Shown here piece by piece: positions 1 to 60,580 of a stretch of DNA of 64,000 nucleotides. This DNA comes from Hypanus sabinus. Lineage: Eukaryota. Under the pieces are notes generated by a model. That model had not been told where the DNA came from. It made no database searches and worked only from the letters and a program-made list of their open reading frames with translations. The stretch spans positions 148,552,001 through 148,616,000 of the forward strand of contig NC_082712.1 in the NCBI RefSeq assembly GCF_030144855.1, read 5' to 3'. The position numbers were made by a program, and so were the translations under genes. Position 1 is the stretch's first letter. Every line of letters begins with the position of its first letter.

Positions 1-1530
1 GAACATCTATTCATGGACTTTAAAAACAAGAGTGAAATTGTGCAGAAAATCAGGGATATGCCCCTCTCTGCAAAGACAGATCAATAAAAATGGCAGAAGA
101 CATCACAAGACAGCAAATTAAAGACATCAATTCAGCTGTGGCCTACTCGATTGCCTGTGACGAGTCCAAAGACAAAGGTGATATTGAACGAATAGCGCTG
201 TTCTGCCGGTATGTAAACTCTGCCGGGCCACAGGAAGAAATGATTGAGTTGATACCTCTAAAAGGCCAAACTCGGGGGGGAGGACATCTGTGAGGCTGTC
301 TTGAATTGTTTAAGAGCCAAAGGAATAAAGACCACCCACCTGGTGTCAGTAGCTACTGATGGGGCACCAAGTATGACAGGAGCGCACAAGGGATTTGTGG
401 CTTTACTGCAGAAGTCGCTGGACAGAAAGCTGCTGATTTTTCACTGCATCTTGCACCAAGAGGCACTGTGCGCTCAAACATTTCCTCCGGAATGCACAGA
501 AGTAATGGATGTTGTCATTCAGATTGCCAATAAAATAATGGCAAAAAGTTCAAATCACTGTCAATTCCGTTTGTTACTGGATGAGCTGGAAAGCGCATAT
601 TCTGATCTCCTGCTGCACAACAAAGTCCGGTGGCTGTCAAGAGGGGAGGTGCTGAAACGCTTTGTCGCGTGTCTGGAAGAAGTGAAAACTTTCCTGGGCA
701 GCAAAGGGCTCACCATTCCTGAGCTGGAACAACCAGAGTGGCTGGAAAAGCTACACTTCATGGTAGACATGACAGCACACCTGAACATGCTGAACACAGC
801 TCTTCAGGGGAAAGGACGCACAGCCCTGCACATGTTGGAGGATGTTTTGGCATTCGAGCGCAAGTTGACAGTGCTTGCCAGAGATTTACAGAAAGGCACA
901 TTGTCTCACTTCCCCAATTTGAGAGAGTTCAAACAAGCTCATGACATGATAAATTCGGAGTATTTACATTCTGCAATCATCGCAATGCAAACATCGTTTG
1001 GGAAACGCTTCTGTGAGTTCAGAGAGGAAAAAAACACATTATTCTTCCTGGTCACTCTCCTAAGCATCGATCCATCCCTACTGAATACGACTGCATTGGC
1101 AGGTGTGAGTCACCCTAATCATGAGATGCAACTGGCCGACATAGCCGACAAAGACATATGGGTGTCCAAGTTTAGACGCTTGACAGCAAACCTTGAAGAT
1201 GTTGCCCGTCAGAAGGCCGTTCTTGCTCAGAATCACAAATGGAGTGATATTGAAAGCCTCCCCACACCGGACAAACTTGTGTTCGAAACATGGAATGCTA
1301 TCCCCGACATTTATGTAAACATTAAAAAGTATGTGCTTGGAGTCCTGTCAATCTTTGGATCCACATATGTATGTGAGCAGGTGTTCTCCAACATGAACTT
1401 TATTAAAAACAAACATCGTGCACGCCTCACAGATGACAGCCTGCGATCCTGTGTAAAGATGAAGGTGATGTCATACAGCCCTGATGTGCAGACGCTGTGC
1501 GCTGAGGTGCAGGAGCAGAAATCCCATTAA
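1..1530 (+). pseudogene. hAT transposase (GTF2IRD2/EPM2AIP1-like), frameshifted; 409-aa C-terminal part open at 301-1530
   Basis: Motifs DESKD, VATDGAPSM, FHCILHQEALCA (CxxH), VRWLSRG and STYVCEQVFS, plus a C-terminal hATC-like region (KNKHRARLTDDSL). Frameshift in the G-run at ~273-280 between ORF 90-293 and ORF 301-1530. Confidence 0.85.
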
Positions 1531-33150: not shown

Positions 33151-33184
33151 TAAAAAAAAATTAAAAATCCGACATTGGTTAACA

Positions 33185-33655
33185 GCGTGCATCTCACATT
33201 GAGGTAACATTGTGCATCTGTCATTGAGGTAGCGTGCGTCTGTCATTGAAGTAACAGTGTGTGTCCGTAATTGACGGAACAGTGTGCGTCTCACATTGAG
33301 GTAACAGTGTTAATCTCACATTGAAGTAACGTGCGTCTGTCATTGAGTTAACAGTATGCGTCTGTCATTAAGGTAATGTTGTACATCTGTCATTGAGGTA
33401 ACACTGTGCATCTCACATTAAGGTAACGTGCATCTCACATTGAGGTAACTGTGCGTCTCACATTGAGGTAACGTGCATCTCACATTCAGGTAACGTGCGT
33501 CTGTCATTAAGGTAATGTGCGTCTCACATTGAAGTAACATTGTGCGTCTCACATTGAGGTAACACTGTGCGTCTCACATTGAGGTAACGTGCATCTGTCA
33601 TTGAGGTAACGTGTGTCTGTCATTGAGGTAATGTTGTGTGTCTGACATTGAAGTA
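33185..33655. repeat. Minisatellite, ~20 copies of a 22/25-bp unit
   Basis: Unit CATTGAGGTAAC[AGT/ACT/ATT or none]GTGC(G/A)TCT(CA/GT). Unit starts from 33197 to 33646 are spaced 22 or 25 bp apart (one 23). Confidence 0.95.
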
Positions 33656-36619
33656 TGTTAAAAGGAGAGCATTAAGCTTCCCTTAATCTATTCATTGATG
33701 CAGTAAAATGTGAACAGAGTCAATTAAACATCAGCTACCTTTTTGAGCCAGAAACAACCTATCTCATGAGTAAATATACACAGTAAACAATTATACATTT
33801 GTTTGGCATTATGGGAATAGTTTGACTTCCAGAATAATTCCAGATTGGCACGAAAGGTTCTGTGAATCATTTTGGTAGACACCTGGTATATAATAATGAT
33901 GAAAGGGTTCTGAGAAATGGTTGCCTGTGGAAAACAGATGGGGTAGTGTTTGAACAGGGGAATTGAAAGAAAAAAAATTCTCAAGTATAGTTAATGATGG
34001 GCAGTAGAGACTCACTCCGACATGTAAGTAAAAACAACAGTGCCATTAATGTTGTGCAAACCCATGTTTCATGTGTTAATTGAGTTCTTGCTGCAATTCA
34101 TTTGCAGTTATGGCGCACCCATGAACCTCATATTAATTAATGTCAATTGACATCAGGTTTCTGCGTGCTTCATAACTGCAACTGGTAGGTTATCAACGTC
34201 AATAACACCCGGTTTTCATGTTTAGCAGGGGGATCTAATTATTCAGAGGTCACTTCATTTTATTTTGCTTTTCAGGCATTGTTTCAAAATGGATTTGGAA
34301 TGGGTAGATAAAAGGTTAATGTATAAATTTGGAAAGAATGCATACAGCTGGAGATAAAAACTTTAATTCACTCATCGATTATAATCCTTATTGATTGAAG
34401 ATAAGAATCATTCTACAATACACCAGTACATTCTTCAGACCCAGGAATACCTTTGGTCAATAATCAATTTAATTTGACAATATAATCAGATTCCTATTAG
34501 ATATCAAACCACTGTAATAAATGTATTTTTAAAAATTATACAAGAAATCTGTAGCAAGTAATTCAATTGCATTGCTTTTGTTGTAAGTAACTTTGTAAAT
34601 ACGCTGGGGAGTCAATGCACAAGTGATCAAAATCCATGATCTACATCAACCTCTAGCTATCATTTGTTTGTGTGTACAGATATGCAGCTATTTATCTCTA
34701 TTACATTGACTTGCATAGAGCGCAGTGCAGAAATAAGCAAGTTATTTGTCCCTCTTCCTATCTTTCCTCACCCATCAGTTTACTTCTCGAGTCTTTTCTT
34801 AATTGTATGCTTGTTTAATTTGTTCTATTTTCATGTTCATTTGGCTGTGAATTCTATGTTCTCACCACACCATGGTTTCTTCTGACTTTCCTCTCTCAAT
34901 GGCCTCTGCTTTTTTCCTTTTTCTCCCAGAGATGCTTTCTTTAACAATTCAATGATCATAATTCAACCCTACCCAAATCTTCCCTACTTAAAGACATACA
35001 TCAATGTCACCTCTCAACATTATGTATACTGTGCAATTATAGGGTAGCATTTCATTTGTTTTACTGAGAGAAATTGGCTAAAATTTTATAGGAATGTGCA
35101 ACAATGGCTGAAAATTACTGTTGATGATGTTGCTATTTTACCAGGTTATTTTATGCGGTGAATGCTTCTGCTAAGGTAGTGCAAAGAGGAAAGTTATAAG
35201 AACGTCTGCTGCATCAGGCCACTGAAATAATAAACCACCAATTTCAGTCTGTTATATTCTTTCTTTTTGTATCTGTTTCTTCTTGCAATGTCCAAATTAT
35301 ATATGGAAACACTGAACTTTGATATGGACTCTGAAAGTACAACATGCCAGGAACAAAGAGTTTCCAATACGAGTGTAACAAAGCTCAATGCATTACCTAC
35401 ACTGGTAACTATACTGTGGAAATTACGAGAATAAAATTGATTTTCTTACATAATTCAAATGATCAGTTTTGCTATGATAGATTTTCTTCATTTGATATAA
35501 TAATAATAATTGTAATTATAAAAATTAGGCACATTGAAGCTGAAAATACACAGACTGAGGAGAGCCCAGCCAAAAGTGGTTGAGTTAGTGGGGTCAGTGT
35601 ATCTGAAAACATAACCGAAATAGATATTTCAGCCTACATTTTGTTTTCTATCATTGAAAGAGACATCTGATCTGTATCTTAGCTCCATCCTTTTAACTGG
35701 AGCTCTAAATCATTTTATATATACTTCTTAGCGGAAACATTGATTGATTTCAGAATTATTAATTGAGATTGCTTCTTCTTGTCTCAGCCTTTGTTGGGCA
35801 AAGTGCTTCCTAACTTCTTTGGGCAAAGTGTCTCCTGATTTCTTCCTGAAGCAATGCCGAATTCCTTTTGGCTCCTCAGAAGAGACATGTGTTATTTACA
35901 CACAATCTTAAGCTTTAACTTTGCTGTCCTTTGCCCCTCCTTAGAATCATCAATATCCTAAAAATCATCCTGAACCATGTGCATGTGAGTGAATCGAAGG
36001 AAAATTTATAAACAATCTCTTCAGAAGATTGCCCTGTCTAACATACAGAAAGATTAGAGTGACTCAGCCTGGGAAGTAACTGAGGAAAGTAGTCTAGGTA
36101 ATCCAGCATGAGTTTAGTGAGTGCGACCAGAAGTGTCCCACTTTGGGTGAAGCAGCTGACCCTCTATTACTGGTCCAACTCCCCACTGGCATCACAAAGG
36201 CAGGCAACTTTTAAAAATCTCCTTAAATTGTGTCCCTGGACATTGCATTTTTGGACAACAATTTTTAAGTTCTTTTGCTTCAGGCATGGAGCCCATTGTA
36301 GAGTCTTGATTGAGACTCTATTTGACCGACTGAAGATATAACAAACATTGCTGTTGATACAACATAAGCAGCCATTAATTACCTAAAGCAAGAGAATACA
36401 TCACATGGAACCCCTCCCCCGACACTCCCATGCTATTGCTCTTGCAATCACCTTGAATCAGGTTTAATATCATTGGCACAGGTCGTGAAATTTGCTCTTC
36501 TGTGGCAGCAGTACAGTGCACTACTTAATAATAATAACTATAAATTACAATAAACAAAAATAATAAAATTAAATAAGTATAGCAAAAAGAGAGGAAAAAA
36601 TGCAGAGGCAGTTTTCATA

Positions 36620-37150
36620 GTGTTCTCCACATACCAAGTGCCATCGTCCCAATCTTCACCTCTCCCAGCCCCCACCTTCCACCAGCTCCCCAGTCATCAT
36701 GGACACACCTTCACCACTGGGCTCTGGGGAAACTCAGACACGGCAAAGCATTGGGACCAGATGGTGTGAACCCCAAGGTCCTGAAGCAGTGTGCTGAGCA
36801 GCTGTGTGGAGTTCTCCAGTGCATTTTCAATCTGAGCTTGGAAAGGGTCCCCACTGTGTGGAAAACATCACGGGTAGTCCCAGTACCCAAGAAGGGCAAA
36901 CCAAAAGTCTCAAATGGCTACTGTCCAGTGGCCCTGACTTCACACATCATGAAGACCCTAGAGAGGCTGGTCCTGGCTCACCTCTGACCTCAGCCCTCGA
37001 TCCCCTGTGGTTTGCCTCCCAGGAGCACATTGGTGTTGAACTGGAGAACTCAGGACAAAAAGCAAGTTGTTTTGTTTATGTCTCCCCTCTTGCTGTGAAA
37101 GGATGACACCTCTCTGTCCCTTTATTAGGGAGCAAGAGAGCCTGTGGTAT
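36620..37150 (+). mobile_element. Rex1-type RT fragment and LINE 3' UTR, interrupted by the Gypsy insertion; continues at 41357-~41660
   Basis: ORF 36751-36987 GPDGVNPKVLKQCAEQL..VPVPKKG..YCPVALTSHIMKTLERLV. The rejoined flanks (GAGAGCCTGTGGTAT|GTTGAATT...) resemble 60935-61237. Confidence 0.65.
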
Positions 37151-37364
37151 TGTAGCGCCTCATTTCCTAGCGTATCCGAACCGACTCACAATTAGATAGC
37201 CTACGGGGGTTTGCGAGCACAGAGCTTTGGAGCCTCTTCGCCATGGGGGGCCGGTTGACAGAGGCTTAAAAGTGAGGCTGAAGTTTTCGAATAAAGTTTT
37301 TCCTTCGACTGCAGTTACCGACTCCGTGTCGTAATTTTAGCGCTGCTTGTAGCACACCGCTACA
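37151..37364 (+). repeat. Gypsy 5' LTR
   Basis: TGTAGCGCC...CCGCTACA with internal AATAAA; differs from the 3' LTR only at 37177 (C). Confidence 0.97.
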
Positions 37365-37366
37365 AT

Positions 37367-37380
37367 TGGTGACCCCGACG
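37367..37380 (+). promoter_or_regulatory. Primer-binding site complementary to tRNA-Trp
   Basis: TGGTGACCCCGACG, 2 nt after the LTR; matches the first 14 nt of the tRNA-Trp PBS known from avian sarcoma/leukosis viruses. Confidence 0.85.
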
Positions 37381-37404
37381 GTCCAAACGATTTTTGGACC
37401 AGAA

Positions 37405-38091
37405 ATGACCGACGCCGCCTCTGTTCATGCGGTTTCGTTGAAACTGCCGGGTTTCTGGACACAGCGCCCGGACCTATGGTTCCAGCAAGCCGAAGCCCAA
37501 TTCCACGTTCGCCGGATCACCTCAGAAGACACCCGCTACTACTACGTGGTGGGCTCCCTCGACCAGGACACAGCTGCCCAGGTCGCGGAGTTCGTACAGT
37601 CGCCCCCGGCAGACGGCAAGTACACGGAATTCAAAGCCCTGCTCCTCAGGACTTTCGGACTCTCACGGCGCGAGCGGGCTGCCCGTTTACTGCACCTGGA
37701 TGGCTTGGGCGACAGACCTCCATCGGCTTTAATGAATGAGATGTTGTCTCTGGCCGAGGGACACACAGGCCTCATGTTTGAGCAGGCATTCCTGGAGCAG
37801 CTGCCCGAGGACATACGCCTGCTGCTGTCCGACGCGGATTTCAGTGACCCCCGGAAGGTGGCAGCCCGGGCGGACTTGCTGTGGAACGCCAAAAAGGTGA
37901 GCGGGGCGTCCATCGCACAGATCTCCCAGCCACGCTCCCGGCAGCAAACCAGTCCAGGCCCGGCCGCAGAGCCCACTAACCCCCGGCCCAATGACCACTG
38001 GTGCTTCTACCACCAGCGGTGGGGCGCAGAAGCCCGCCGTTGCCGCCCGCCCTGCAAGTTCCCGGGAAACGCCGGGGCCAGCCGCCGCTGA
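37405..38091 (+). CDS. Gypsy Gag
   Basis: First ATG at 37405 ([33 protein letters not shown]), with C-terminal [19 protein letters not shown]; TGA at 38089-38091. Confidence 0.9.
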
Positions 38092-41000
38092 TGGCTACGG
38101 CGGCTGGCCATCGGGATAGCCTCCTGTATGTGTGGGATAGAAGGTCGGGACGCCGGTTTTTGGTCGATACTGGGGCTGAGATCAGCGTTTTACCTCCGAC
38201 GAGTTACGACACCCGCAGCAGGGCACCGGGTCCCCCCCTGAGGGCCGTGAATGGCAGCACAGTAAGGACCTATGGCACCCGTCAGGTGCAGCTACTGTTC
38301 GGCCCCAGCCAGTTCACGTGGGACTTCACACTGGCCGCCGTAGCCCAACCGCTTCTGGGTGCGGATTTTTTGCGAGCTCACAGCCTGCTGGTTGACCTAC
38401 CCAGGAAGAGACTGGTACACGCCGAGACCTTTCAGACGTTCTCCCTGGGCGCGGCCCAGTTGCCAGCCCCTCACCTCGGCTCCATCACGCTGTCCGACAA
38501 CGATTTCACCAGGGTCCTGGCGGAGTTCCCATCGGTTCTGGCACCGCAGTTCACAGCAGCCATGCCCAGGCACGGCGTACAGCACCACATCCCGACACAG
38601 GGACCACCCCTCCATGCCCGTGCTCGGCGGCTTCCCCCGGACAAGCTCCGACTGGCGAAGGAGGAGTTCCAGAGAATGGAGGAATTGGGGATCATCCGGC
38701 GGTCCGACAGCCCCTGGGCTTCCCCCCTGCACATGGTGCCCAAAGCGACGGGGGGCTGGAGACCGTGCGGCGACTACCGCAGGCTGAACGAGGCTACCAC
38801 ACCGGACCGCTACCCTGTGCCGCACATTCAGGACTTTGCGGCAAACCTGCACGGCGCCCGGATCTTCTCCAAGGTCGACCTTGTCCGAGGGTACCATCAA
38901 ATCCCGATGCATCCTGACGACGTCCCCAAAACGGCTCTCATCACCCCGTTTGGCCTCTTCGAGTTCCTCCGCATGCCGTTCGGCCTGAAGAATGCCGCAC
39001 AGACGTTCCAGCGGTTAATGGACGCGGTGGGACGGGACCTGGACTTCGCGTTCATCTATTTGGATGACATCCTCATAGCCAGCGGCAGTCGTCAGGAGCA
39101 TCTGTCCCACCTCCGTCAACTCTGCGCCCGACTGAGTGAGTACGGTCTTACAATCAACCCTGCCAAATGCCAGTTCGGACTTGATACCATTGACTTCCTG
39201 GGCCACAGGATTACTAAAGACGGGGCAACCCCTCTGCCCGCTAAGGTAGATGCGGTCCGCCACTTCCCCCGACCCACCACGATCAAAGGCCTTCAGGAAT
39301 TCGTAGGTATGGTCAATTTCTACCGCCGCTTCCTCCCTTCAGCTGCCCGGATCATGCGCCCCCTGTTCGCCCTGATGTCGGGTCCGAGCAAGAACATTAC
39401 CTGGGACGAGGAGTCCGCCGCCGCTTTCGTTCAAACGAAGGAAGCTTTGGCTGACGCCGCAATGCTAGTACATCCCAGAATGGACACCCCTACCGCCCTC
39501 ACAGTGGACGCATCAAACACGGCAGTCGGTGGGGTGCTGGAGCAGCTCATCGCAGGTCGCTGGCAACCCCTGGCGTTTTTCAGCAAACACCTGCGGCCAC
39601 CCGAGCTCAAGTACAGTGCTTTTGACCGGGAACTGTTGGCGCTCTACCTGGCAATCCGGCATTTCAGGTACTTCCTAGAAGGTCGGCCCTTCACCGCGTT
39701 CACGGACCACAAACCGCTTACCTTTGCGTTTACGAAAGCATCCGACCCCTGGTCATCCCGCCAGCAACGCCACCTGTCCTACATCTCTGAATACACAACG
39801 GATGTCCGGCACGTCTCGGGTAAGGACAATGTCGTGGCGGATGCGCTCTCTCGCCCTACCGTTCATGCCCTTTCCCAAGGGGTAGACTTTGAGGCACTGG
39901 CAGAGGCACAGCAGGTAGATGAGGAGATTCCGAGTTACAGGACTGCAGTCTCTGGTTTGCAGCTCCAGGACTTCCCCGTGGGCCCAGGTGAGAGGACCCT
40001 ACTCTGTGACGTCGCCACCGGTCAGCCCCGTCCGGTCGTCCCCGCAGCCTGGCGGCGACGTGTTTTCGACTCCATTCATAACTTGGCGCATCCCTCCATC
40101 CGGACAACTGTCCGGCTGGTTTCCAGCAGGTTCGTTTGGCACGGTCTCCGCAAACAGGTCAGTGAATGGGCCAGAACGTGCATGCACTGCCAGACGGCCA
40201 AGGTTCAGCGGCACACCAAAGCCCCACCGCAGCAGTTCCATCCCGCCCACCGGCGTTTCGACCACATTCATGTGGATATCGTGGGCCCCCTGCCAGTGTC
40301 GCGCGGAGCGCGTTACCTCCTGACTATCGTGGACCGGTTCACAAGATGGCCAGAGGCGGTCCCGCTCACCGACACCACCTCCGAATCTTGCGCCCGAGCC
40401 CTGCTCGCCACCTGGATATCCCGCTTTGGTGTACCAGCCCACATTACCTCCGACAGAGGCGCCCAGTTCACCTCCAGCCTGTGGTCAGCTATGGCCAGCC
40501 TTTTGGGGACTCAGCTGCACCACACCACTGCCTACCACCCACAGTCGAACGGGCTAGTGGAGCGTTTCCACCGTCACCTGAAGTCGGCCCTCATGGCCCA
40601 CCTGCGAGGAGCCAACTGGGCGGACGAGCTTCCCTGGGTCCTTCTCGGCATCCGCACAGCGCCCAAGGACGACCTGCACGCCTCGTCGGCCGAGTTGGTA
40701 TACGGCGCGCCCCTGGCCATCCCCGGGGAGTTCCTACCAGCCCCGAGGGGGCAAGAGGAAGAACCCGCTGCAGTCCTGGGCAGACTTCGTGAGAAGCTCG
40801 GTAACCTGGCCCCCATACCCACTTCACAGCATGGGCGGCACCCGACCTGCGTACCCAAAGACCTACGGAACTGTAAGTTTGTGTTTGTACGAAGGGGCGG
40901 GCATCGGCCACCGCTGCAGCGGCCATACGAGGGGCCGTTTACGGTGCTCCGGAACAACGGGTCCACGTTCGTGCTGGACGTTGGGGGGAAGGAGGAGGTT

Positions 41001-41147
41001 TTCACGGTGGACCGCCTCAAGCCGGCCCATGTGGACCTGGCGCAACGGGCCGGTGCCTCGGCGCAGAGGCCGACCTCCCAAGCAGGTTCTGGCCCAGGCT
41101 GTGGACATTGGGGGGTGTATCGCCGGTTCTGGGGGGGGGTTATGTAG
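38064..41147 (+). CDS. Gypsy Pol (protease-RT-RNase H-integrase), entered by -1 frameshift
   Basis: LVDTGAEIS (protease); [19 protein letters not shown] and YLDDILI (RT); VDAS, TDHKPL and VADALSR (RNase H); H..AHP..CMHC, HVDIVGP, SDRGAQF and NGLVERFH (integrase); YEGPF (GPY/F). No internal stop. Confidence 0.95.
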
Positions 41148-41356
41148 CGCCTCATTTCCTAGCGTATCTGAACCGACTCACAATTAGATAGCCTACGGGG
41201 GTTTGCGAGCACAGAGCTTTGGAGCCTCTTCGCCATGGGGGGCCGGTTGACAGAGGCTTAAAAGTGAGGCTGAAGTTTTCGAATAAAGTTTTTCCTTCGA
41301 CTGCAGTTACCGACTCCGTGTCGTAATTTTAGCGCTGCTTGTAGCACACCGCTACA
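41143..41356 (+). repeat. Gypsy 3' LTR
   Basis: 213/214 identical to the 5' LTR (T at 41169). Confidence 0.97.
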
Positions 41357-42694
41357 GTATGTTGAATTATTAGATGAATGATTAGTTTTTGTTGTATTGC
41401 AGATCATGGTCTTTCTTGGGGGCTTGCTTAGTGGGTGGAGGGTGCTGATTTTATTTTGCTGAAGTAAGAAGGGTGGGGGAGGATCATTGCTTTGCTTTGT
41501 ATGTGGGAGGGAGAGTGGGGGGGGGGCTTTAGCGTTCTAATGTTTTCCCGTCACTCATTCTTTGGGGCACTCTTGTGTTTTCGTGGATGTTTGTGAAGAA
41601 TAAAAATTTCAGGTTATACATTGTATACATTCTCTGATATTCAATGGAACTATTGAAATTATAATTATATCACACCACTTAAACGTTAAAAACATGGTGT
41701 GTTAATTTAGAATTAAGTATTGGACAGAATCTGAAGGGAAAAGAGTGAGACTTCCTTATTCAGCATCGGTTTTGTCAGATTAAAGTTCAGGCTGTATTTT
41801 AACTGTTCCTACAATGAACCATCTGTGTTTGTTAAACATGTGTGAAGGCAAACGATTTTCACCTCAATATATGACTAAGTACAACCGTTTGTTTAGGATG
41901 CAAGGCAGGGTGCTACTGTTATTTCCAAGTTACCTTCATGAGAAGGAGCAGCTGAGAGAGTTCTCTGAAGAAGCATTCTGTGATAGAAAGGTCTCAGAGG
42001 GAATGATTCTCCAATCAATCTAGAGAAGTTATTTCTACTTTATTTGTATGATAATATTGATTAACTGATATGTACATTTTTTTTCCATAGAATCGTGGAA
42101 ATATTTGGGATGGAATGAAGCCATTTATCTGAAGTAATCAGTAACTTAAAATTCTTGCTCAGGCAGTCATATCACAAACAGTGTTGACCACATTCTTACC
42201 TGTACAACATACCAGTCTCTCAAGACTTACTTTTACCTCTGCTGTTCAGTCCATTGGATTTATACTGATTATCCTTGAGCAGGACTCTATAAAAAGACTG
42301 ATATGATGACTAAAATGGTCCTTGAAGTTTCATTCTTACAGCTCTGTGTAGCTGCATGTATTGTTGGTCATCCTTCCCATGCCCAGCTGTCTGCCCAGGA
42401 CTTTAATTACTGAACAGCTGTGTGTTCTAAACATTGTATCGGGAGGATTTTTACAGATTCCTTGCCAATATTTCTCTTTCAGAGGAATGCTAATTTTCTG
42501 GCGCATACATTGAAGTTGCCTTGGAGGATCAGCTTATCTCCCTCTGGGACCTAAGCTAAGTTCTTTCAAGGCTAGAGTAGGCCTTATCCTTAGCTTCCAG
42601 TGTTGGGGCAGATGTGTTGATGACTGTGGCATGCTGGTTCAGCATCATGGTGAGCTGGAATGTCACGAGTCATTGCCTCCCCAGAGGGGTGGAG

Positions 42695-43227
42695 TGTATC
42701 CAGAGATACCGGCCACATGACAGACGCACTGCCACCTGGCTGGTCGGAGGACACACCACATGCCAATCAACATTTGGTCCCTCCCAACTAATCAATGCAC
42801 ACCTAAATTATTGGTCACCTTAATTGGATTATCTCGCCCAGCCCCATGCTTTAAAAGGTGAGACATGTGCCTGGCTCAGTCTCTCTTACAGAACACCTCA
42901 GGAAGGTAAGTGCATTGATTTACGTTTGGGAAGGTCTATTGTTTGTCCTGGTAAGGGAGCCGCAGCTATCCAAGGTCAAGGGGGATAGTTGTTGTAGTGC
43001 TTTTCCCTTGTTCTTTGTTTGTGTAACCGTACCCTGTCCCCACACCCTTCCTGTGTATTGTAGTTGCTTGTGTTGACCCGACTTCCCCTTGTAAATAAAT
43101 CCCTTATTATTAAAACTGTGTGTGTTCAGGCTTCTACTGTTGAGACTCAAAGAACCAGTTATTTTCCATCACAACAGGGAGTCACTGAACTGCCAGACCA
43201 GCTCATACTTGCAAACTAAACGCAACA
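42695..43227 (+). repeat. ERV 5' LTR
   Basis: TGTATCC...CGCAACA; TTTAAAA at 42850, AAG|GTAAGT at 42903-42911, AATAAA at 43094. Confidence 0.9.
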
Positions 43228-43229
43228 TT

Positions 43230-43244
43230 TGGCGCTGCGAGCAG
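43230..43244 (+). promoter_or_regulatory. Primer-binding site, tRNA-Ser type
   Basis: TGGCGCTGCGAGCAG is the reverse complement of CTGCTCGCAGCGCCA, resembling vertebrate tRNA-Ser 3' ends; 2 nt after the LTR. Confidence 0.75.
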
Positions 43245-43283
43245 TGTCTCATAGGTTTTGGCTGGACACAAGCACAGGGGATA

Positions 43284-44845
43284 ATGTTCTGGAATAAGGG
43301 GAAGAAAGCCAGTGCAGGCACCCAGGATAAGATCCCTGGGTGGGCTGATGAAAGGGAGGGATTTGAGAGTCTGGCCAGCATGCTGGCAGACCACGGAAAA
43401 CCAGTGGACTGGTCTGAGCAGTTAGAGCCCCGTGGAAAGAAGCTGGGCCATCATGTGGTCTCCCTCCTGAAGGAATCAGGGTTCCCCAAAGTCAATGGGA
43501 GTCAAAGGGGTGCCTTCTGGTTGTTTGCGTCCCTGCTGAGACGCCAGGTTAGAATTACTGATTACCTGCAGCACTTGTGTGGTCAGAAGGACAGGGAAAT
43601 TGAAGACGTCAGTCAGCGTTGTTGCACGCTGAAGGAAGCAGCACAGGCTGCCCAGGCCCGAGCCAATGACCTTGAAGTTAGGGGAACTGAACTTGCCTAT
43701 CGCCTCATAAAGCTTCAGCAGGCCAGGGCAGCCCGTCGGTCTGGCTGGCAGCCGGACCCATTAAAGATTCGAGCCTTAGTCCAGTGTGGCGACAAGCTGG
43801 ACGCATGGCTGGGGGATGGAGACATCTGGCTGGATAGTGACAACGAGGGGGAGACGGCCGAACTTTCCCCTAGTCACTCGGAGACCCGGGTCTTCTCCCC
43901 CAAGGAGCTGACCCAGTTGGCGGATCGCTGCCGCCAACGACCAGGCGAGCACCTCGCGGCCTGGCTGCTCCGATTGTAGGACGAAGGGGGGCCCAACCTC
44001 AGCCTCTCCCATCAGGAGGCAAGCGCCCTGGGAAGCCTCTCTGGCCGGCAGAGCATAAACAAAGCGCTGCGGGCGCCACAAGCGGAAAAACACAAGGCAC
44101 AACCCTGTGGGATCGGGTAGTGACCGCGGTACGAGCTCGCTATCCCACACTTCTGGAGTGAGATCTACACGGACACCCGCAATGGGGTACGATCAGTGAG
44201 GGCACCCGGGTTATCAGGGAATGGGCACTGGTCGACGGCATCTATCAAGCTGCCTGCGACCGTAACTTCCTTGAAGACACATGAGTGACCGGTGCCCTAG
44301 CGGGATACTTGGTCACTACCGCACGCCCCGATCTTAAGTCGGTAATCCTGCCCCTTCATGGCACCAGCTAGTGGTAGGACCGTACGGGATGCCATCACCC
44401 TCCTGGAGGGATTAAAATATATGCAGAGGGGGGCACGGTACGCAGGTCCGGAAGACCGAGACAAGGGCCCTAGACACTATCTCTCAGATATACACGCAGG
44501 CAGCTGTACACGGACCTACTGCGTGCAGGGGTGGATCGTAACCAGATAGATGGCATCCCCATCCCCAACCTATATGCCCTGTGGAAGGAGCATTGCAGGG
44601 GGAAGACTACTTACAAAACGACCACCAACACCGAGCCACCCTCCGCGCATTCCCTGCCTGAAACTGTCTCGAAGGCCCTCGAAGCAGAACTCAGACAGCT
44701 CGTCAGGCAGGAAATGTCCCACCTCCACCAGCAAAGTGCCTCAGCCCCAGGCGTGGCAGCCCTCTTCCCCCCCCCCCCCCATAGGATGAAGGCCAGGGCC
44801 CCCGGCGCATTTGCTCTCTCGCCCTTTCCCGCCCGGGAGACCTGA
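43284..44845 (+). pseudogene. ERV gag (ERV-L/Fv1-like), with stops and frameshifts
   Basis: ATG at 43284. FSPKELTQLADRCRQRPGEHLAAWLLRL*DEGG..QEASALGSL resembles ERV-L Gag (YTPKEL..WILRVWDNGG); the Trp codon is TAG at 43977. Confidence 0.8.
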
Positions 44846-45735
44846 GGCCACATATACCCGTCACAGTACATTGGGGAAAGGGAAACGCACAGAGGTGGAC
44901 CTGAGGCCACATATACCCGTCACAGTACATTGGGGAAAGGGAAGCGCACAGAGGTGGACCTGAGGCCACATATACCCCCTCTCCAGCACACAATTATCCC
45001 AGGCAATCCTGCCTTATGGAGGGGTACGGTAATGCAGATAGAGGGATTGGGGGGCTCCCTGTTACCCACCAGGGAGGTCACCCTCCGCCTAGCCATAGGC
45101 TACCATTCCCCCAGACGTGTACAAGTCCTTATTGCCTCCTCCCCGGAATGTATCCTCAGAATCAATGTTTTAAAGGGACAAACACTTGAAACAAACGGGC
45201 AAGTTCACCTTTGGCATCGCGCGAGCCACTATTGTCGTCGGGGTGGCTAAGTGGGAGCTAATTGTCATTCCCCCTCCCTCCAAGATCATCTGTAACGGTC
45301 AGTACAGAGTGCCAGGGGGGGGGGGGGGGCGCCAAGAAATCGCAGACTCCATTCAAGCCCTGTTACGGGAGGGTATTAGAACCGCTGCCTCACCTTTCAA
45401 TAGCCCCATTTGGCCCGTCCGTAAGAGGAACGGCTCCTAGCGGATGACCGTTGATTATTGGCAATTGAACAAGGCTGCACCCCCCCTCGCCGCCGCTGTA
45501 CCTGATATTGTCACCCTTATTGAAGACATCGCAGGCCGTCCCCATAAACCCTGGTACGCTGTTGTCGATTTAGCGAATATACATTTTTCTCGATTCCCCT
45601 GCACTCAGATAGCCAAGACCAGTTTGCCTTTACTTGGGACAGCAGACAATACACATTTATTTAATCGCCTGCCCCAAGCAACATTCACAGCCCCACAATC
45701 TGCCATGGCCTTGTCTCCCGCGATTTACACAACAT
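44839..45735 (+). pseudogene. ERV protease and N-terminal RT fragment
   Basis: DLRPHIPVTVHWGKG; VGVAKWE..QYRVPGG..SPFNSPIWPVRK..MTVDYWQLNK..AAAVPDIV..WYAVVDLAN..RLPQ, closely following the HERV-L/MERV-L RT pattern. Ends before YxDD. Confidence 0.85.
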
Positions 45736-46706
45736 CTCTTCCCTTGACCCCCGATGGGGTGGGTGCTTCAGGAACTGGTATTTCCCTCTCTACAATTTGA
45801 CCTCCACCCGAGTCCCCACCCTCAGGGTTATTCCACAGCCACTGAGTAGGCCTAACGAATGCTGGTGCAGACTCTGCAATGTGCACATTTCTAACTTTTC
45901 CGTTGGTCACAGCAACTGTCAGTGAAACAGGTACCCAGGTGCCCCAGTGACCACTGTCGACGATGCCACTAAGCTGGGTGCTCCCTGGACTCTAAACGGG
46001 ACCCACTGGATCTGCGGCCACCGCGCCTACCCGTGGCTCCCCACGAGCTGGTACGGCTGCTGCTTTCCAGCATATGTGGTGCCCTTCATCCACCCCCTGA
46101 ATGAACTTGGGGAGCATCTGGCATACAGCGGCCACCGGGTCAAGAGGGCCATTACGGAGGCAGAGAGGTTCTGGATGATAGCCTTTCCCAGTTATGGTAC
46201 GGCCCGGCTGTCCCGGGAGGTGATCCAGATGACCAGTGTGCTCGAGACTCTGGCCGACGAGACGGCAGTGACACTGCAACACACGGAGGATGCCCTCACC
46301 CGAATGGCGGCAGAACTGACAGCTGTCAGGATGGTCGCCCTGTAGAACCGAATGGCACTGGACTACCTACTCGCTGCTGATGGTGGAACATGTGCAGTGG
46401 TTGGTGAGGAATGCTGTACCTTTATCCCTGATGAGTCCAGCAACATCACTCACTTGGCTGCTCACATTCGGGACTCGGTGGCTAAAATTCAAAAATCAAG
46501 GGACCAGCTCCTCCAGCACAAAACCTCATGGGGCAATTGGTGGCCATTTGGGTCCCTGGGGGGGGTGGTGGGCAACTGTCATTCACTGGTCCATCGCACT
46601 CATTCTTGTAATCATAGCCATTTCTATACTATGTTGCTCATGCCAGCTGATTAGAGTATCTCTGCATTTACTTAGCTGCTCAAAATCGGTTATTTCTGGT
46701 ATATGA
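45736..46706 (+). pseudogene. ERV env, C-terminal SU plus TM (gamma-type)
   Basis: WICGHRAYPWLP..W.GCC, furin site RVKR, heptad region, ISU-like AL*NRMALDYLLAADGGTC, CX6CC (CAVVGEECC), and membrane anchor IALILVIIAISILCC after a G-run frameshift. Confidence 0.9.
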
Positions 46707-46763
46707 TATTGTTTCACCCTCTTATGTGTGTTGGCTATGTGGTTCGTCTTCCGAGGAGTGGAG

Positions 46764-47298
46764 TGTATCCAGAGATACCGGCCACATGACAGACGCACTG
46801 CCACCTGGCTGGTCGGAGGACACACCACATGCCAATCAACACTTGGTCCCTCCCAGCTAATCAATGCACACCCAAATTATTGGTCACCTTAATTGGATTA
46901 TCTCGCCCAGCCCCATGCTATAAAAGCTGAGACATGTGCCTGGCTCAGTCTCTCTTACAGACCACCACATTGGAGATAAGTGCATTGATTTATGTTTGGG
47001 AAGGTCTATCGTTTGTCCTGGTAAGGGAGCTGCAGCTATCCAAGGTCAAGGGGGATAGGTGTTGTAGTACTTTTCCCTTGTTCTTTGTTTGTGTAACCGT
47101 ACCCTGTCCCCACACCTCTTTCTGTGTGTTGTAGTTGCTTGTGTTGACCTGAGTTCCCCTTGTAAATAAATTCCCTATTATTAAAACTGTGTGTGTCCAG
47201 GCCTCTACTGTTGAGACTCAAAGAACCAGTTATTTTCCATCACAACAGGGAGTCACTGAACTGCCAGACCAGCTCATACTTGCAAACTAAACGCAACC
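46764..47298 (+). repeat. ERV 3' LTR
   Basis: About 95% identical to the 5' LTR by eye; TATAAAA at 46919-46925; terminal CA altered. Confidence 0.9.
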
Positions 47299-50252: not shown

Positions 50253-50562
50253 NNNNNNNNNNNNNNNNNNNNNNNNNNNNNNNNNNNNNNNNNNNNNNNN
50301 NNNNNNNNNNNNNNNNNNNNNNNNNNNNNNNNNNNNNNNNNNNNNNNNNNNNNNNNNNNNNNNNNNNNNNNNNNNNNNNNNNNNNNNNNNNNNNNNNNNN
50401 NNNNNNNNNNNNNNNNNNNNNNNNNNNNNNNNNNNNNNNNNNNNNNNNNNNNNNNNNNNNNNNNNNNNNNNNNNNNNNNNNNNNNNNNNNNNNNNNNNNN
50501 NNNNNNNNNNNNNNNNNNNNNNNNNNNNNNNNNNNNNNNNNNNNNNNNNNNNNNNNNNNNNN
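50253..50562. other. Assembly gap (310 N)
   Basis: Run of N. Confidence 1.
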
Positions 50563-54110: not shown

Positions 54111-57100
54111 AGGGATTCATTCATAGCTGTCTGCCATCAAACACCCAAATTCCAGCCATGCTGAGGACCATGAACAGGGATGGACTTATCAAACACAAAG
54201 AAACAACTGGTGCTCACTTGAAGGAGCACTTGAAATTACCTCTGGCTCCAGCCTACAGCAAAATGTTTGGTCAGTCCTTGCCACAAGACCAAAGTCAAAA
54301 AGAGCAGCTAATATAACAAACAACAAGGCCCCAGGAGCATATTTTATCCCAGGATATGTCCATTTGTCAGGAGCACTGTAAATCCCTGAAGGAAAGGACC
54401 ACCTCCCAGACCACTCACTCACCTGTACTGCTAAACAGCACCTGCTCCTCCTGGGGCCTTGTCACCCATCTTCGAACACACCGAACTGAAGGAAAAGCAA
54501 ATCAGCCCAATTTTTAGCAACTGGGAAAGAAGATTTGAGGGACAAGCTCCAAAGAAATGCTGTGAAGTTCAATTAATCCACAAGGTGGCAGCATCACGCA
54601 GGTGGACAACCAAAGAAGGTATTTTACTGCACTAAATAAGAGTAAAAAAAAGCTGAGAAATTTGGGGAAATGGGTGAATGGAGAATTGGATATAAAATAA
54701 TAACAATAAATTACAGATTTAGCAAATTCTAACTGTAAATATTATACTTATATTTATATTTATTATACTTATAAAGATTTATTGTAAAGTAGCAAAAATA
54801 TTAAAAAGATTAAATAAAGCTAAATATAAAATATTTTAAAATAAAAGACTCCAGCGGCCATATGAAGATTTACTGTGAGAAAAATATCATGCAAAATTGC
54901 ATTTACAGTTTGAGTATGTGGTTAAGCCTGACCACTAGTTTAGAGTGACAAGCCAAAGAGGCAGGGCAGCCCATCAGCTGCCAAAGTACAAGCCTGAAGA
55001 AGAGAGAGAGAGTTCCTGTTATTTCAGAGTTAACCTCATGGTCTGAAACAGGTGGAAGACCTCTCTGAAAAACACATTCTGCAAGACAAAGGTAATATAG
55101 GAAATGGCACTTCTATTTACACAGTGTGTAATGACTTTTCATTTGGGGCAGAACTATGACTGAATTTTTGTGTTAGATTACTTATTTTTAGTATCTTAGC
55201 TGCACTGAGATTATCTAAATGTTATCAAAACTATAGCCATAGCATACAAACATTATATACTGTATATTATAATATCAAATAAGCTCTAATTTTCACCATG
55301 ACATTTAACTTGAGCATATTGAAACCTGCTAAAAGAATAATAAAACATTCTAATAGGCAAGAGAGTGAAGAATTGTACCAAATATTACTCACAATTAATT
55401 TTATTGATTTTACATTTCGATGTTTTGAATTTTGAATATTTTTAAATATATACGTTATGAAATAGATTTTTCTTTAAATTTTCAAATGGCTGCTTTGCTA
55501 AGCATAGTAAGACTGGATTTAGGATAATGTTGCATATTATATCATACTTTACATTAGAAAGAGCTCTGATAAATATAAAGAGAGGAGGTATGGAGTATTT
55601 CCTGGATAATGAGGGAATTAAGTTGTTTTTGTGAAATGGTGGAATGCGTTTCTATGAATTTTACTCCAGATGACTAGAGAGAATAGACAGAACTATAATA
55701 AATTTTTAAAACTATATTGCTGACTGCTGTGTCACAATATCTTCAGTGTTTCAAAATTTTTTATGAAGTCCAAATCCATTAAAATTAACCTCTAAGGTTG
55801 ACGATATTAATGTTTTGAAATAGCATTTGTTAAAAATGGCAAGAACATCTATAAACCAATCGACCTTTCTGCTATCAGCACTAGAATTCTGAATGCAGTA
55901 AATAATTTGTACTGCTTTCTAAACTGAGCGCTTTTTACATTGAGTCTCTTTTTTTTTTAAATAGCTCGGCAAGTATTACAAAACATAATGGTGTTTCTGT
56001 ACCGGCCAGTTGGTGCAATTCTATCATTCTGTATTCTGAATTTTATCCAGCTATTTAGCTGATATTTAGGCTGGTATCAGTGCAGAATATTACATAATTT
56101 ACCAAAAGACACCAATGGATCACAACCAGGATTTTCCTCAATTGTCCTTTGTCTACATTCAGTAGGCATATGGTTACTGTACCAAATTGCCTACTACTTT
56201 AGAGACAAGGTAGAAATACATTGCGCCTACAGCTTTGGAATATGTGACAATATTATCTTTAAGGATGACATCAGTAACAGATAGTGTGTCTGTCTCATTA
56301 CACAAATTAGACTTCCTGTGCTTTATTGCAAAGATAATGAATAAATATTATGAGTTAGATCATTTTAGATTATTTTATTGGAAAATATTTTACCAATCCA
56401 ACAATTACAGTTGTTAACAATTTTGAGACAATCTAAGACTTAGTATCAACTTAAATCTTTGGCTTTCACTTCTTTGCTAAAGACTCTAGTCTGTGGTGGA
56501 CTTAGTTGTGCAATGAATTGATTTCATTGGGTGGATATTATTGATATGTAATTGTAAGCCATTTGCAGATAGAAATGAGGCTCATTTTCAATCTGTGACT
56601 GTTCTTTGGTAATGTTGCTTGATGTTCCAAATAGAGGTAATTTCTGTGAGTTGAAGGGAATTGCACTTTCTCTTAACTCCAGTGTATTCTCTCCCAAATA
56701 TGACAAATAGCTATTTATAATCATTTCTGTTTCTGCTCTCAGTCTAGATTTTCATTGAAATTTGTGTCTGTGGTGCTGTTTCTTCTTCTATTCTACAGAC
56801 TTCAATTTTGCTAACAAGTCTGACAGGTGAATAGAATAATTAAATTAACAGGTTAATTGAAGGATTGCTTTTCCTTTTGAAGATCTACCTTCACGGTTAC
56901 CTCAACTAAAAAAAACCAATAAATGTAATGGATTTTGATTTGATGAATTCTGCACTGTCTTTCCTTTATTACCCCATAATATATTCAAATCCTGCTATCA
57001 TTCTTTTGGATTATTTTTTAAAGACAATTTTATCACCAAGGCTAGGCTGGATGGCTTGTCATTTTCAGATACACCCTTCTGTTTTTGAACACAAGTTTAT

Positions 57101-57404: not shown

Positions 57405-57430
57405 ATATCCACTTTTATGTCTCTATTAGA
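57405..57430 (+). promoter_or_regulatory. Splice acceptor of the RAG1 coding exon
   Basis: Pyrimidine tract CACTTTTATGTCTCTATTAG|A (AG at 57428-57429), 13 nt before the ATG; same layout as tetrapod RAG1 exon 2. Confidence 0.7.
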
Positions 57431-57442
57431 TATCACTTTCTA

Positions 57443-60400
57443 ATGGAAATGGAGGTGCCTATGCAAATTATACCTGAATATTTCAAGAACTCAGAAGCGA
57501 GGCCAACAGTAAATGTCCAAACAGAAGCCAAGATTTCAACAGAAAAGGCTTTTGAGTCCCAGGCTGTTCTGCCTGTCCGTGGTGTAATGTGGCAAATGAC
57601 TCCTCCTCAGACCAAGCCACAGGGAACTCTGTCTTTAGAAACATTGCCCGTGGACAAGAAGACTTTGGAAGATAAGTTCCTGGATGTCAACCTCCCAAAA
57701 GCCAAGTTCTATGACTATATGCAAATGGAAACAAAATCTTTAGAAGATCACGTGTTGAAGTTACAAAATCTCTGCCGCATTTGTGGAGTTTCCTTTAACA
57801 TGAACAGTTATGACATGAAATACCCAGTCAATGGCCCTGTTGATCATGTCACACAAGAGGTTCTTAAGAAAATGGGATATGGAAACAGTTTTTGGCCAGA
57901 ACTCATCCACAATACATTTAATATAGATGTCATGACAGATTCAGAGGCCAGACATCCCACCCACTTCTGCCATAGTTGTTGGCAGATTGTCATTCAGACA
58001 ATCAACAATCCAACAAATGAAGATGCATTCTTTCCCGTAAGCACAATTATTCAGTGGAAACCACACTCCAGTTTTTGCAATGTTTGCAACTCCTCAAGTG
58101 GAACACGCAAACGCAAAGTTCTCAAACTGAGTGCGCCAGGCACCAAGAAGCCTAAAGTATCAGTTGATATGCCTATCAAAGCAAGAATCATTAAAAGAAA
58201 AGATAAAATAAATTCAACAAGTATCTTATTGGCTAAAAAGATTGTGAGCTGCAAGAAGATCCATCTAAGTTCAAAAGTCCTTCTGCATGATTATCCCAAT
58301 AACTTCATTCAGTCAGTGTCATGCCAGGTTTGTGAACACTTGCTAGTTGACCCTGTGCAGTCACCATGCAAGCATCTCTTCTGCAGAACGTGCATTCTTA
58401 AATGCACTACAGTACTTGGAAAATTTTGTCCAGTTTGTAGATTTCCATGTGATCCTGCAGAGTTTAAAAGCCCAGTGAAATCATTCATTAGTGTTCTCAA
58501 TTCATTAGTTCTAAAATGTCCTGTGGAAGACTGTGAAAAAGAGGTAAGATTTGGTGAATATCCCAAACACACCCAGTGTCACAAAAAAACAAGAATGTCA
58601 CAGGCCTATTCTCCAATAAACAAAGGTGGCCGGCCCAGACAACATTTGCTCTCTCTAACTCGCAGGGCTCAAAAACATCGTCTGCGTGATCTCAAACTTC
58701 AGGTTAAGGCATTTGCGGAAAAGGAGGAAGGTGGTGATGTGAAGTCAGTATGCCTTACTCTGTTGTTGCTGGCATTGAGAGCTGGAAATGAGCACAAGCA
58801 AGCAGATGAACTGGAAGCTCTCATGCAAGGTCATGGATCAGGGCTGAAGTCAGGTGTCTGCCTTGCCATTAGGATTAGTACGTTCCTGAGTTGCAGTCAG
58901 TATCATAAAATGTATAGGACGGTCAAAGCAGCAACTGGGAAGCAGATCTTCCAACCACTGCATGCACTCCGGAATACCGAGAAAACATTGTTGCCAGGTT
59001 ACCATTCATTTGAATGGGAGCCTCCTCTCGCAAATGTCTCCACCAACACTGAAGTGGGAATAATAGATGGTACATGTGGCTGGTTGCAATGCGTTGACGA
59101 CTACCCATTGGAAACAATTTCGAGAAGGTTTAGGTATGATGTGGCAATTGTTTCAGCACTGAAGGATCTTGAGGATCATATTTTGGAAGGTTTAAAACTT
59201 AGAAATATAGATGAGTATGTGGGTGGACCTTTTACTGTAGTAATCAAAGAATCTTGTGATGGAATGGGAGATGTTAGTGAGAAACATGGATGTGGCCCCT
59301 CAGTTCCGGAAAAGGCAGTGAGGTATTCATTTACAATCATGAGTATAAGCGTGGCAAATGAAGATAATGAGAAGGTGAAAATATTTGAAGAGCTCAAGCC
59401 AAATTCTGAATTGTGCTGCAAGCCTCTTTGCTTGATGCTGGCGGACGAATCTGACCATGAAACTTTGACGGCAATATTGGGTCCGCTAATCACGGAAAGG
59501 GAAGCAATGAAAAACAGTGACTTAATCCTCGAAATTGCAGATATACCTCGATCCTTCCAGATTGTCTTCAGAGGCACAGGATATGATGAGAAGCTGGTTC
59601 GTGAAGTCGAAGGCCTTGAAGCCTCAGGCTCTATGTACGTGTGTACGCTATGTGATTGCACTCGAAGTGAAGCTTCGCAAAATCTGATCTTTCACTCTAT
59701 AACGCGGAGCCATGAAGAGAACTTGGAGCGGTATGAAATTTGGCGCACAAATCCATATCATGAGACAGCTGAACAGTTACGCGACAGAGTGAAAGGGGTT
59801 TCAGCAAAAGCATTCATTGAAACATTGCCCTCCATAGATGCTTTGCATTGTGACATTGGGAATGCAACAGAATTCTACAAGCTGTTCCAGGATGAGATTG
59901 GGGAGATGCACAAACATCCCAGTCCATCTAAGGAGGAAAAGAAAAGGTGGCAAGCATTGCTTGATAAACACCTAAGAAAGAAGATGAACCTGAAACCAGT
60001 CATGAGGATGAATGGAAACTTTGCAAGGAAACTAATGACTAATGAGACTGTGGAAGCAGTTTGTGAATTGATTCCCTCCGAAGAAAGACGAGAGATTCTC
60101 AGGGAGCTGATGCACCTTTACACCCTTATGAAACCTGTGTGGCGGTCCACATTCCCACTCAGAGAATGCCCTGAACTGCTCTGTCAATACAGCTTTAATT
60201 CCCAGAGATTTGCAGAACTGCTTCATACAGAGTTCAAGTACCGGTATGATGGCAAGATCACCAACTACCTTCATAAGACTTTGGCTCACGTCCCTGAGAT
60301 CATTGAAAGGGATGGCTCTATCGGGGCATGGGCAAGTGAAGGAAATGAATCCGGCAACAAACTCTTCCGGCGTTTCAGAAAAATGAATGCAAGGCAGTCC

Positions 60401-60580
60401 AAGAGCTATGAGTTGGAAGATATTCTGAAGCACCACTGGTTGTATACTTCAAAGTATTTACAGAGGTTTATGGATGTGAACAACGAATTACAAAATGAAG
60501 CAAATTCATTTGTACCAGATGAATTAATCACCCAACACGATCCAATAAATTCAATAGATGATGATTCCCTTTTTTTTTAA
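57443..60580 (+). CDS. RAG1: V(D)J recombination-activating protein 1, 1045 aa, single coding exon
   Basis: LCRICG N-terminal domain; [25 protein letters not shown]; nonamer-binding [21 protein letters not shown]; catalytic ESCD606G, GYD715E and GNE969SG; Zn ligands (CTLCD; LHK..H). Confidence 0.99.

Follow-up and report, generated by a model that had tools for sequence, protein, structure and literature searches.

An Internally Deleted ERV-L-Type Provirus With a Gamma-Type env Remnant Upstream of RAG1 in Hypanus sabinus, Very Probably One Copy of a Multicopy Stingray-Type Family

Overview of the Provirus

The analyzed window, a 64,000-nt stretch of the Hypanus sabinus genome (RefSeq assembly GCF_030144855.1, contig NC_082712.1, positions 148,552,001 to 148,616,000, forward strand), contains an element that is very probably a dead, internally deleted provirus combining gag-pol of the ERV-L type, that is, of class III endogenous retroviruses (ERVs), with a gamma-type env, and that represents one copy of a multicopy family of stingray type. 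Two direct repeats (42695-43226 and 46764-47297), which differ from each other by 21 substitutions, flank a GC-rich interior of 3.5 kb on the plus strand (Table 1). The combination of ERV-L/ERV-S-like class III gag-pol with a gamma-type envelope had been proposed in a preliminary description of the sequence, and it is borne out by homology searches, by a Pol clade with 98/95 support, and by matches of the env remnant to the TLV_coat family and to syncytins. The gag, protease, reverse transcriptase (RT), and env motifs quoted in that description are all in place on the plus strand in a three-frame translation, and the homology matches go far past what chance would produce. Judging by its sequence, this copy is unable to encode RT, integrase, protease, or Env.

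Table 1. Features of the provirus and its surroundings (positions within the window; LTR, long terminal repeat)
Feature	Position	Strand	Basis
Left target-site-duplication candidate TGGAG	42690..42694	+	flank comparison
5′ LTR core, 482 bp, TGT...ACA	42695..43176	+	contig ends, joins of LTR to primer binding site
5′ LTR signals: CCAAT 42763, TATA-like 42850, splice donor 42903-42911, AATAAA 43094		+	sequence inspection
50-bp extra piece between 5′ LTR and primer binding site	43177..43226	+	identical to 50 bp after 3′ LTR
Primer binding site, tRNA-Ser-like	43230..43244	+	sequence inspection
gag remnant, ERV-L type	43284..44784	+	translation, homology
Protease remnant	44785..45195	+	
RT, N-terminal part only	45196..45736	+	homology
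Deletion junction from RT to env	45726..45745	+	homology ends
env remnant, gamma type	45745..46700	+	Pfam, homology
Polypurine tract	46753..46763	+	
3′ LTR core, 484 bp, TGT...ACA; TATAAAA 46919, splice donor altered	46764..47247	+	alignment to 5′ LTR
Right flank, opening with target-site-duplication candidate GGGAG; origin of the 50-bp piece or its second copy	47248..47297	+	
Host RAG1 coding exon (context)	57443..60580	+	

Gag, Protease, and RT Remnants

The gag remnant carries the motif KELTQL..WLLRL*DEGG at approximately 43902-43990 and lacks about 39 codons in frame near 43851 relative to the Hemitrygon akajei protein. Its reading frame is broken by six stops, including one at 43977 and further ones within 44159-44471, and by a frame change near 44075-44084. 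A TAG that shares the frame of pro closes the gene; the same read-through layout is reported for the Xenopus tropicalis element XtERV-S (PMC8278194). A zinc knuckle was found in none of the three window frames and in none of four relatives. Within the protease remnant, the start motif DLRPHIPVTVHWGKG lies at 44839 and again at 44898, and a 59-bp unit, repeated about 2.4 times in tandem (44839-44983), occupies the place of the relatives' protease catalytic motif.

The RT motifs QYRVPGG, SPFNSPIWPV, MTVDY, AAAVPDIV, and WYAVVDLAN are located at 45300-45580. This part contains a stop at 45438 and frame changes near 45580 and 45660-45685, and homology ends at 45736, ahead of YxDD. Pfam detected no RT or protease family on the broken window fragments (0 matches on three fragments), and both were identified through homology searches. 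The deletion that follows amounts to at least about 2.6 kb, with about 750 Pol codons and about 130 Env codons missing relative to the nearest near-complete relatives, so that RNase H, integrase, and the remainder of RT with its active site are lost from this copy, and env lacks its opening ~130 aa, the part with the signal and CXXC. The YIDD active site is present in the H. akajei protein of the same family. The dUTPase region likewise falls within the deletion; the domain is absent from both full-length Pol models of a second H. akajei family and is present in a MuERV-L-like locus, L001.

Affinity of the gag-pol Region

The RT piece matched 16 of 425 candidate proteins, the best of them from H. 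akajei (E = 8.5e-62). With H. akajei XP_072911374 it shares 85% identity; a figure of 93% is also recorded for the RT and an H. akajei copy. The second H. akajei family, which has 13 members, and a 14-member family in Narcine bancroftii both stand at 59%, Xenopus XP_031756329 at 57%, and most bird matches at 37-41%. XP_031756329 represents a Pol of the XtERV-S family, as it holds the peptide encoded by the published primer together with the Table 2 motifs (PMC8278194). The gag remnant matches a MuERV-L-like gag, and several Gag models of its batoid relatives are annotated as Fv1-like. A metagenome scan returned 23 loci; no relative of the element was found in the viral contigs searched. Locus L001 is labelled MuERV-L-like in that it fits the published ERV-L motifs and has a dUTPase; locus L005 we take to be GGERV-L-like.

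Two side observations concern these relatives. The second H. akajei and the N. bancroftii families, one of which has Gag-Pol gene models of 1520-1579 aa, suggest younger expansions. Loci L001-L004 (MuERV-L-like) and L005-L007 (bird ERV-L-like) are host ERVs on metagenome contigs, i.e., host DNA in the assemblies.

The Pol tree was calculated for 17 rows, obtained from a 23-row set by removing six (Gypsy, L019, L009, and three near-duplicates). The window element and H. akajei group together with 100/100 support. The clade around this pair, supported at 98/95, also takes in L001, XtERV-S, L005, and two further Pols, with amphibian Pols among its members; the three class I rows and a second bird lineage fall outside it. 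Approximately unbiased (AU) tests, for which a simpler model was used, rejected the grouping of the batoid rows with class I (p = 0.030) and with the second bird lineage (p = 0.029).

Three other assignments were rejected. A grouping of the RT with class I or Gypsy elements had been named in advance as the check on the class III reading, and the RT falls with neither. Membership in class I (gamma or epsilon) is contradicted by the position of the RT outside the class I rows and by the lack of a zinc knuckle. Membership in Gypsy/Ty3 is contradicted by the RT itself, which is 28% identical to the RT of the neighbouring Gypsy element vs. 50-60% to ERV-L-type RTs and scores 73 bits with Ty3 vs. 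151 bits with murine leukemia virus (MLV). Finally, the element is not an ERV-L in the strict sense (MuERV-L, HERV-L), since it has an env, whereas strict ERV-L has none.

The env Remnant

The env remnant matches Pfam TLV_coat (E = 1.3e-14) and syncytin structures (syncytin-2, E = 4e-14). It retains the C-terminal part of the surface subunit (SU), the furin site RVKR at 46136, a fusion peptide, an immunosuppressive domain (ISD) with a stop at 46343, CX6CC at 46391, and, in a shifted frame, the membrane anchor at 46596-46652; another stop interrupts it at 45923. The nearest of 154 env proteins belong to two H. sabinus copies (XP_059826944, 88% identity over 258 aa), followed by Pristis pectinata XP_051893589 (42% identity), a full-length protein of 421 aa with a signal peptide, CWVC, ISD, and CX6CC. 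The CXXC motif of SU, lost here with the deletion, is present in five of six longer relatives inspected. In a quick tree of 90 env rows, the window element joins Hypanus first (support 100) and next Pristis with Carcharodon (85); the rows around them are shark and sturgeon envs. One Hypanus protein links the gag of this family to the env described here, and in a second one the env continues into the family's LTR; because of these joins, the env is assigned to the family, although the joins may be gene-model splices.

A fragment of the same env was also encountered elsewhere: an NLR-type gene model of H. akajei (P0047) ends in a piece 82% identical to it, either as an annotation artefact or through exonisation.

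Copy Number and Age of the Family

Fourteen sequencing runs from 10 organisms contain 26-29% of the sampled words of the element; five with shares under 0.2 were left out of the count. No RNA run was among those listed, and run X15, which may be RNA, was given no weight as evidence of expression. Contigs were examined for 4 of the 24 listed runs, and their summed depth is a rough measure only and not a copy number. Contigs from three runs cover 29-30 of 30 bins, with a summed depth of 2-10 in the flank, hundreds to thousands inside the element, and tens of thousands in the LTR, which puts the internal part at roughly 100-500 times the flank depth and the LTR at thousands of times that depth. 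In these three runs, the env part is about as deep as the gag-pol part. We read these data as a family present in multiple copies in several species, its LTRs far outnumbering its interiors. Its nearest relatives come from two stingrays, H. akajei and H. sabinus, which lends indirect support to a cartilaginous-fish host, likely of the stingray (myliobatiform) type. The specific stingray family may be unnamed; no paper naming a stingray ERV-L-type family was found in the literature searched, which did not cover Dfam and Repbase.

The Kimura two-parameter distance between the 5′ and 3′ LTRs is 0.045. The insertion is accordingly estimated at 10 Myr (million years) with a mammalian rate, 20-45 Myr with an intermediate rate, and about 100 Myr with the shark rate assumed by Han (2015); none of these dates is reliable if refilling or conversion took place at the locus. 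The LTR distance of 4.5% is slightly above the divergence of the flanks from two other organisms (15/415 and 5/232). Single-copy contigs from two organisms pass from the left flank into 22 LTR bases, which is under the 31-base bridging rule and gives a hint that the insertion is shared with other species.

LTR Boundaries and the 50-bp Piece

Seven contigs with differing flanks all end at 42695, and contigs in three of the four runs examined run straight from the LTR end at 43176 into the primer binding site; the family LTR is therefore delimited as 42695-43176 (3′ copy 46764-47247). With these joins and the TGT...ACA ends, the LTRs are shorter than had been drawn earlier, when they were extended to 43227 and 47298, the family LTR measuring 482 bp instead of 533 bp. 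The flanks at the short LTR ends, TGGAG and GGGAG, match at four of five positions (chance ~0.018). Both a 5-bp target-site duplication (TSD) and the absence of a zinc finger are listed as marks of ERV3 in the accessible part of PMC4299795.

A strong splice donor (42903-42911) stands in the 5′ LTR about 50 bases past the TATA-like box; 26 of 5000 shuffled sequences have one, and the donor also occurs in other copies of the family. The primer binding site presumably corresponds to tRNA-Ser, and its start resembles one 8-base start typed S in a published table (a weak match); a tRNA search returned 0 tRNAs. An Rfam scan gave three matches, all far under threshold.

The left flank was considered as the tail of a second provirus and rejected in that role, as none of the 154 env proteins matches upstream of the 5′ LTR and the flank has single-copy depth. 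Separately, positions 42684-42694 of this flank agree with the polypurine tract of the element at 10 of 11 bases; chance, conversion, and a retained primer are indistinguishable as causes.

The 50-bp piece that follows each LTR is identical in both copies, is found nowhere else in the window, and is missing from the other copies of the family among the contigs listed. It is probably a duplicate of the host right flank. The last 94 aligned bases of the two repeats show no differences, compared with ~4% overall (chance ~0.02), and because template-switch copying would leave such an identical tail, we infer that a later switch at a 4-base microhomology (the shared CAAC) likely copied 50 bp of the right flank behind the 5′ LTR.

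The same facts admit a different history, which is possible and still less probable than simple insertion. A solo LTR would have stood at the locus first, and ectopic repair would have refilled the interior and the 3′ LTR from a different family member that already carried the deletion, with the 4-base microhomology 50 bp inside the right flank as its point of entry; the LTR distance would then not date the insertion. This history would account for the identical piece behind both LTRs, for the unchanged 94-base tail, and for the other listed copies that do not have the piece, and a depth of LTRs far above that of internal parts is expected if solo LTRs are common. A later conversion of a normal provirus, however, fits these facts with an equal number of switches, and an LTR distance slightly exceeding the flank divergence fits a simple insertion before the split.

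Rather doubtful is the reading of the 50-bp piece as the U5 end of a minor subfamily, with LTRs reaching 43227 and 47298. The piece is indeed present in both repeats, and both of its copies end in CAAC like the family LTR. The longer boundary, on the other hand, yields neither a target-site duplication nor a terminal CA at 47298, whereas the shorter one gives TGT...ACA at both LTRs and the four-of-five duplication, and the joins of the short LTR to the primer binding site recur in three of four runs, among the matches listed.

It is very unlikely that gag-pol derives from an env-less ERV-L retrotransposon and that a single recombination event at 45726-45745 brought in the env of a class I provirus unrelated to it. 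The junction of RT and env is a true discontinuity, and class III envs are always of class I type in the available part of PMC4724089; against this, Hypanus proteins join gag to env and env to the LTR (joins that could be gene-model splices), and the env and gag-pol parts are of comparable depth in three runs.

Several points weigh against the provirus as interpreted here. The candidate TSD agrees at only four of five positions, and no single contig carries a whole family member with both gag-pol and env. The AU test weakly rejects an exclusive clade of the batoid rows with XtERV-S (p = 0.046). The 23-row mixture tree, which included Gypsy, was misrooted by long-branch attraction and was therefore not used for rooting; it supports the batoid clade at only 84/90, and the 17-row tree leaves that clade open. 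Resolution within the ERV-L clade is poor. The trees also lack HERV-L, HERV-S, snakehead retrovirus, foamy viruses, named epsilonretroviruses, and loki retroviruses, and their MuERV-L and GGERV-L labels are motif-based or presumptive.

The Parent Virus

For the preferred interpretation, an ERV-L-type provirus with its own gamma-type env, the following course is proposed. Judging by the env anatomy and the full-length relatives, the parent may reasonably be supposed to have been infectious. Its reverse transcription would likely have been primed by tRNA-Ser, and its Pol likely produced by read-through of the gag stop. Env would likely have been translated from a spliced RNA whose donor is the LTR site at 42903-42911, a route also predicted for XtERV-S, and cell entry would have relied on a furin-cleaved, disulfide-linked gamma-type pair of SU and transmembrane subunit (TM). 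Germline integration would have generated a 5-bp duplication, one base of which has since changed, with neutral decay afterward.

RAG1 and the Neighbourhood

The provirus had been described as lying some 10 kb upstream of RAG1, and the computed distance agrees: the RAG1 ATG is 10,146 bp past 47297 on the same strand, a value that is approximate because a stretch of Ns, an assembly gap at 50254-50562, lies between them. None of three start variants of RAG1 was found in the protein collection searched, so that the gene was not matched to a named orthologue. Inspection by eye suggests an upstream exon belonging to RAG1 near 55000-55092, with an acceptor near 57430, which places the provirus outside the RAG1 gene. 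Position is the one link found between the two. Co-option of the LTR as a promoter or enhancer of RAG1 is hardly credible, even with RAG1 10 kb downstream on the same strand, a strong splice donor kept in the 5′ LTR, TATAAAA kept in the 3′ LTR, and an insertion that may be common to other species, since an LTR close to any given gene is to be expected when there are thousands of them, RAG1 appears to have the upstream exon just mentioned, and the donor is a feature of the family rather than of the locus.

Other features of the window were recorded in passing. The segments 54930-55098 and 57410-57431 form, by eye, a probable RAG1 promoter region with E-box-like motifs, a non-coding first exon, and a splice acceptor. 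A young Gypsy LTR retrotransposon (37146-41356, plus strand) is located 1.3 kb upstream of the provirus; its LTRs are identical at 216 of 219 positions, its gag is open, its 1050-aa pol frame includes protease, RT, RNase H, and integrase, and its observed/expected CpG ratio is 0.82. A minisatellite of 22-25-bp units occupies 33161-33656, and a 422-aa open frame at 262-1530 (plus strand) presumably resembles a hAT-type transposase.

Significance

The architecture of class III pol with a gamma env is already known from frogs, humans, and likely sawfish, and the present element represents a new family of such a virus. The earlier suggestion of a possibly undescribed chondrichthyan lineage is thus mostly unsupported: the whale-shark element Rh_ty_ERV3, with the same Gag motifs, is placed beside HERVL, MuERVL, and HERVS in the accessible part of PMC6001957, and ERV-SA.a-Ppe has been named (bioRxiv 10.1101/2021.11.23.469661). 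What is added is a dated, high-copy stingray family among the env-bearing class III retroviruses, and the published view that the loss of env in ERV-L is derived gains support. We know of no living virus among the env-bearing class III retroviruses. If the insertion is common to ray species, it could be used as a phylogenetic marker and to calibrate substitution rates in rays, while the 50-bp duplication calls for caution in dating by LTR distance. A far broader proposition is improbable: that enveloped ERV-L-type viruses without a dUTPase form, in rays and sharks, a deep and so far uncatalogued branch of their own (three or more batoid families and the whale-shark element) that co-diverged with cartilaginous fish, that the ancestor of mammalian ERV-L was an enveloped marine virus more than 400 Myr old, and that a single family grew in stingrays to hundreds of proviruses and thousands of LTRs.

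Comparison With Known Elements

The most extensive likeness is to XtERV-S, as far as the available part of its description goes (PMC8278194). Both elements have gag-pol of class III as well as a gamma-type TM with ISD and CX6CC, a serine primer binding site (putative in the present element), TGT...ACA LTRs, a 5-bp TSD (a candidate in the present element), a gag stop in frame with pro, a splice donor upstream of the primer binding site, and a basic Gag N-terminus without a myristoylation glycine; the RT piece is 57% identical. The XtERV-S env of 441 aa and that of the Pristis relative, 421 aa, are both short. The two differ in that the AU test weakly rejects them as sisters (p = 0.046), the XtERV-S LTR measures 705 bp vs. 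482 bp, the present copy is dead, and the batoid Pol models reaching the C-terminus have no dUTPase.

Among elements of cartilaginous fish, Rh_ty_ERV3 heads the group of HERVL, MuERVL, HERVS, and AviERVIII (clade Huo, as read from the label order of the PDF tree), and its Gag shows the same two motifs by eye; it differs in host and family, and the visible part of its 5.7-kb consensus covers gag-pol, with no env link stated there (PMC6001957). ERV-SA.a-Ppe, from a screen that included six cartilaginous fish, combines a class III Pol with a gamma-type env, the difference being that its authors call the class III group SnRV-related in the accessible part of the source (bioRxiv 10.1101/2021.11.23.469661). 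The suffix Ppe would stand for the sawfish Pristis pectinata, the species with the nearest full-length env to the one described here. Lineage I of CmiERV, from the elephant shark, is likewise an env-bearing ERV outside class I in a cartilaginous fish; it differs in clustering with snakehead retrovirus (PMC4422223), and by eye its Pol motifs, shown in supplement 7 of Xu et al. (2018), are unlike the ERV-L type of the present element (PMC6001957).

MuERV-L and HERV-L share the clade, the Fv1-like Gag, and the YIDD of the relatives, and the RT of the H. akajei copy is 53% identical to that of the MuERV-L-like locus L001 over 309 aa; they have a dUTPase and no env, whereas the present family has an env and apparently no dUTPase. 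The mammalian HERV-S/HSERVIII comes close in layout, with a class III pol, a class I env related to PABL/PRIMA41, and, in the available part of its description, neither dUTPase nor zinc finger (PMC4724089). Relatives of the env reported here are annotated as PABLB-like. In the accessible parts of two surveys, every class III env found by Vargiu et al. is of class I type (PMC4724089), and env is reported in many ERV3 elements by Chong et al. (PMC4299795).

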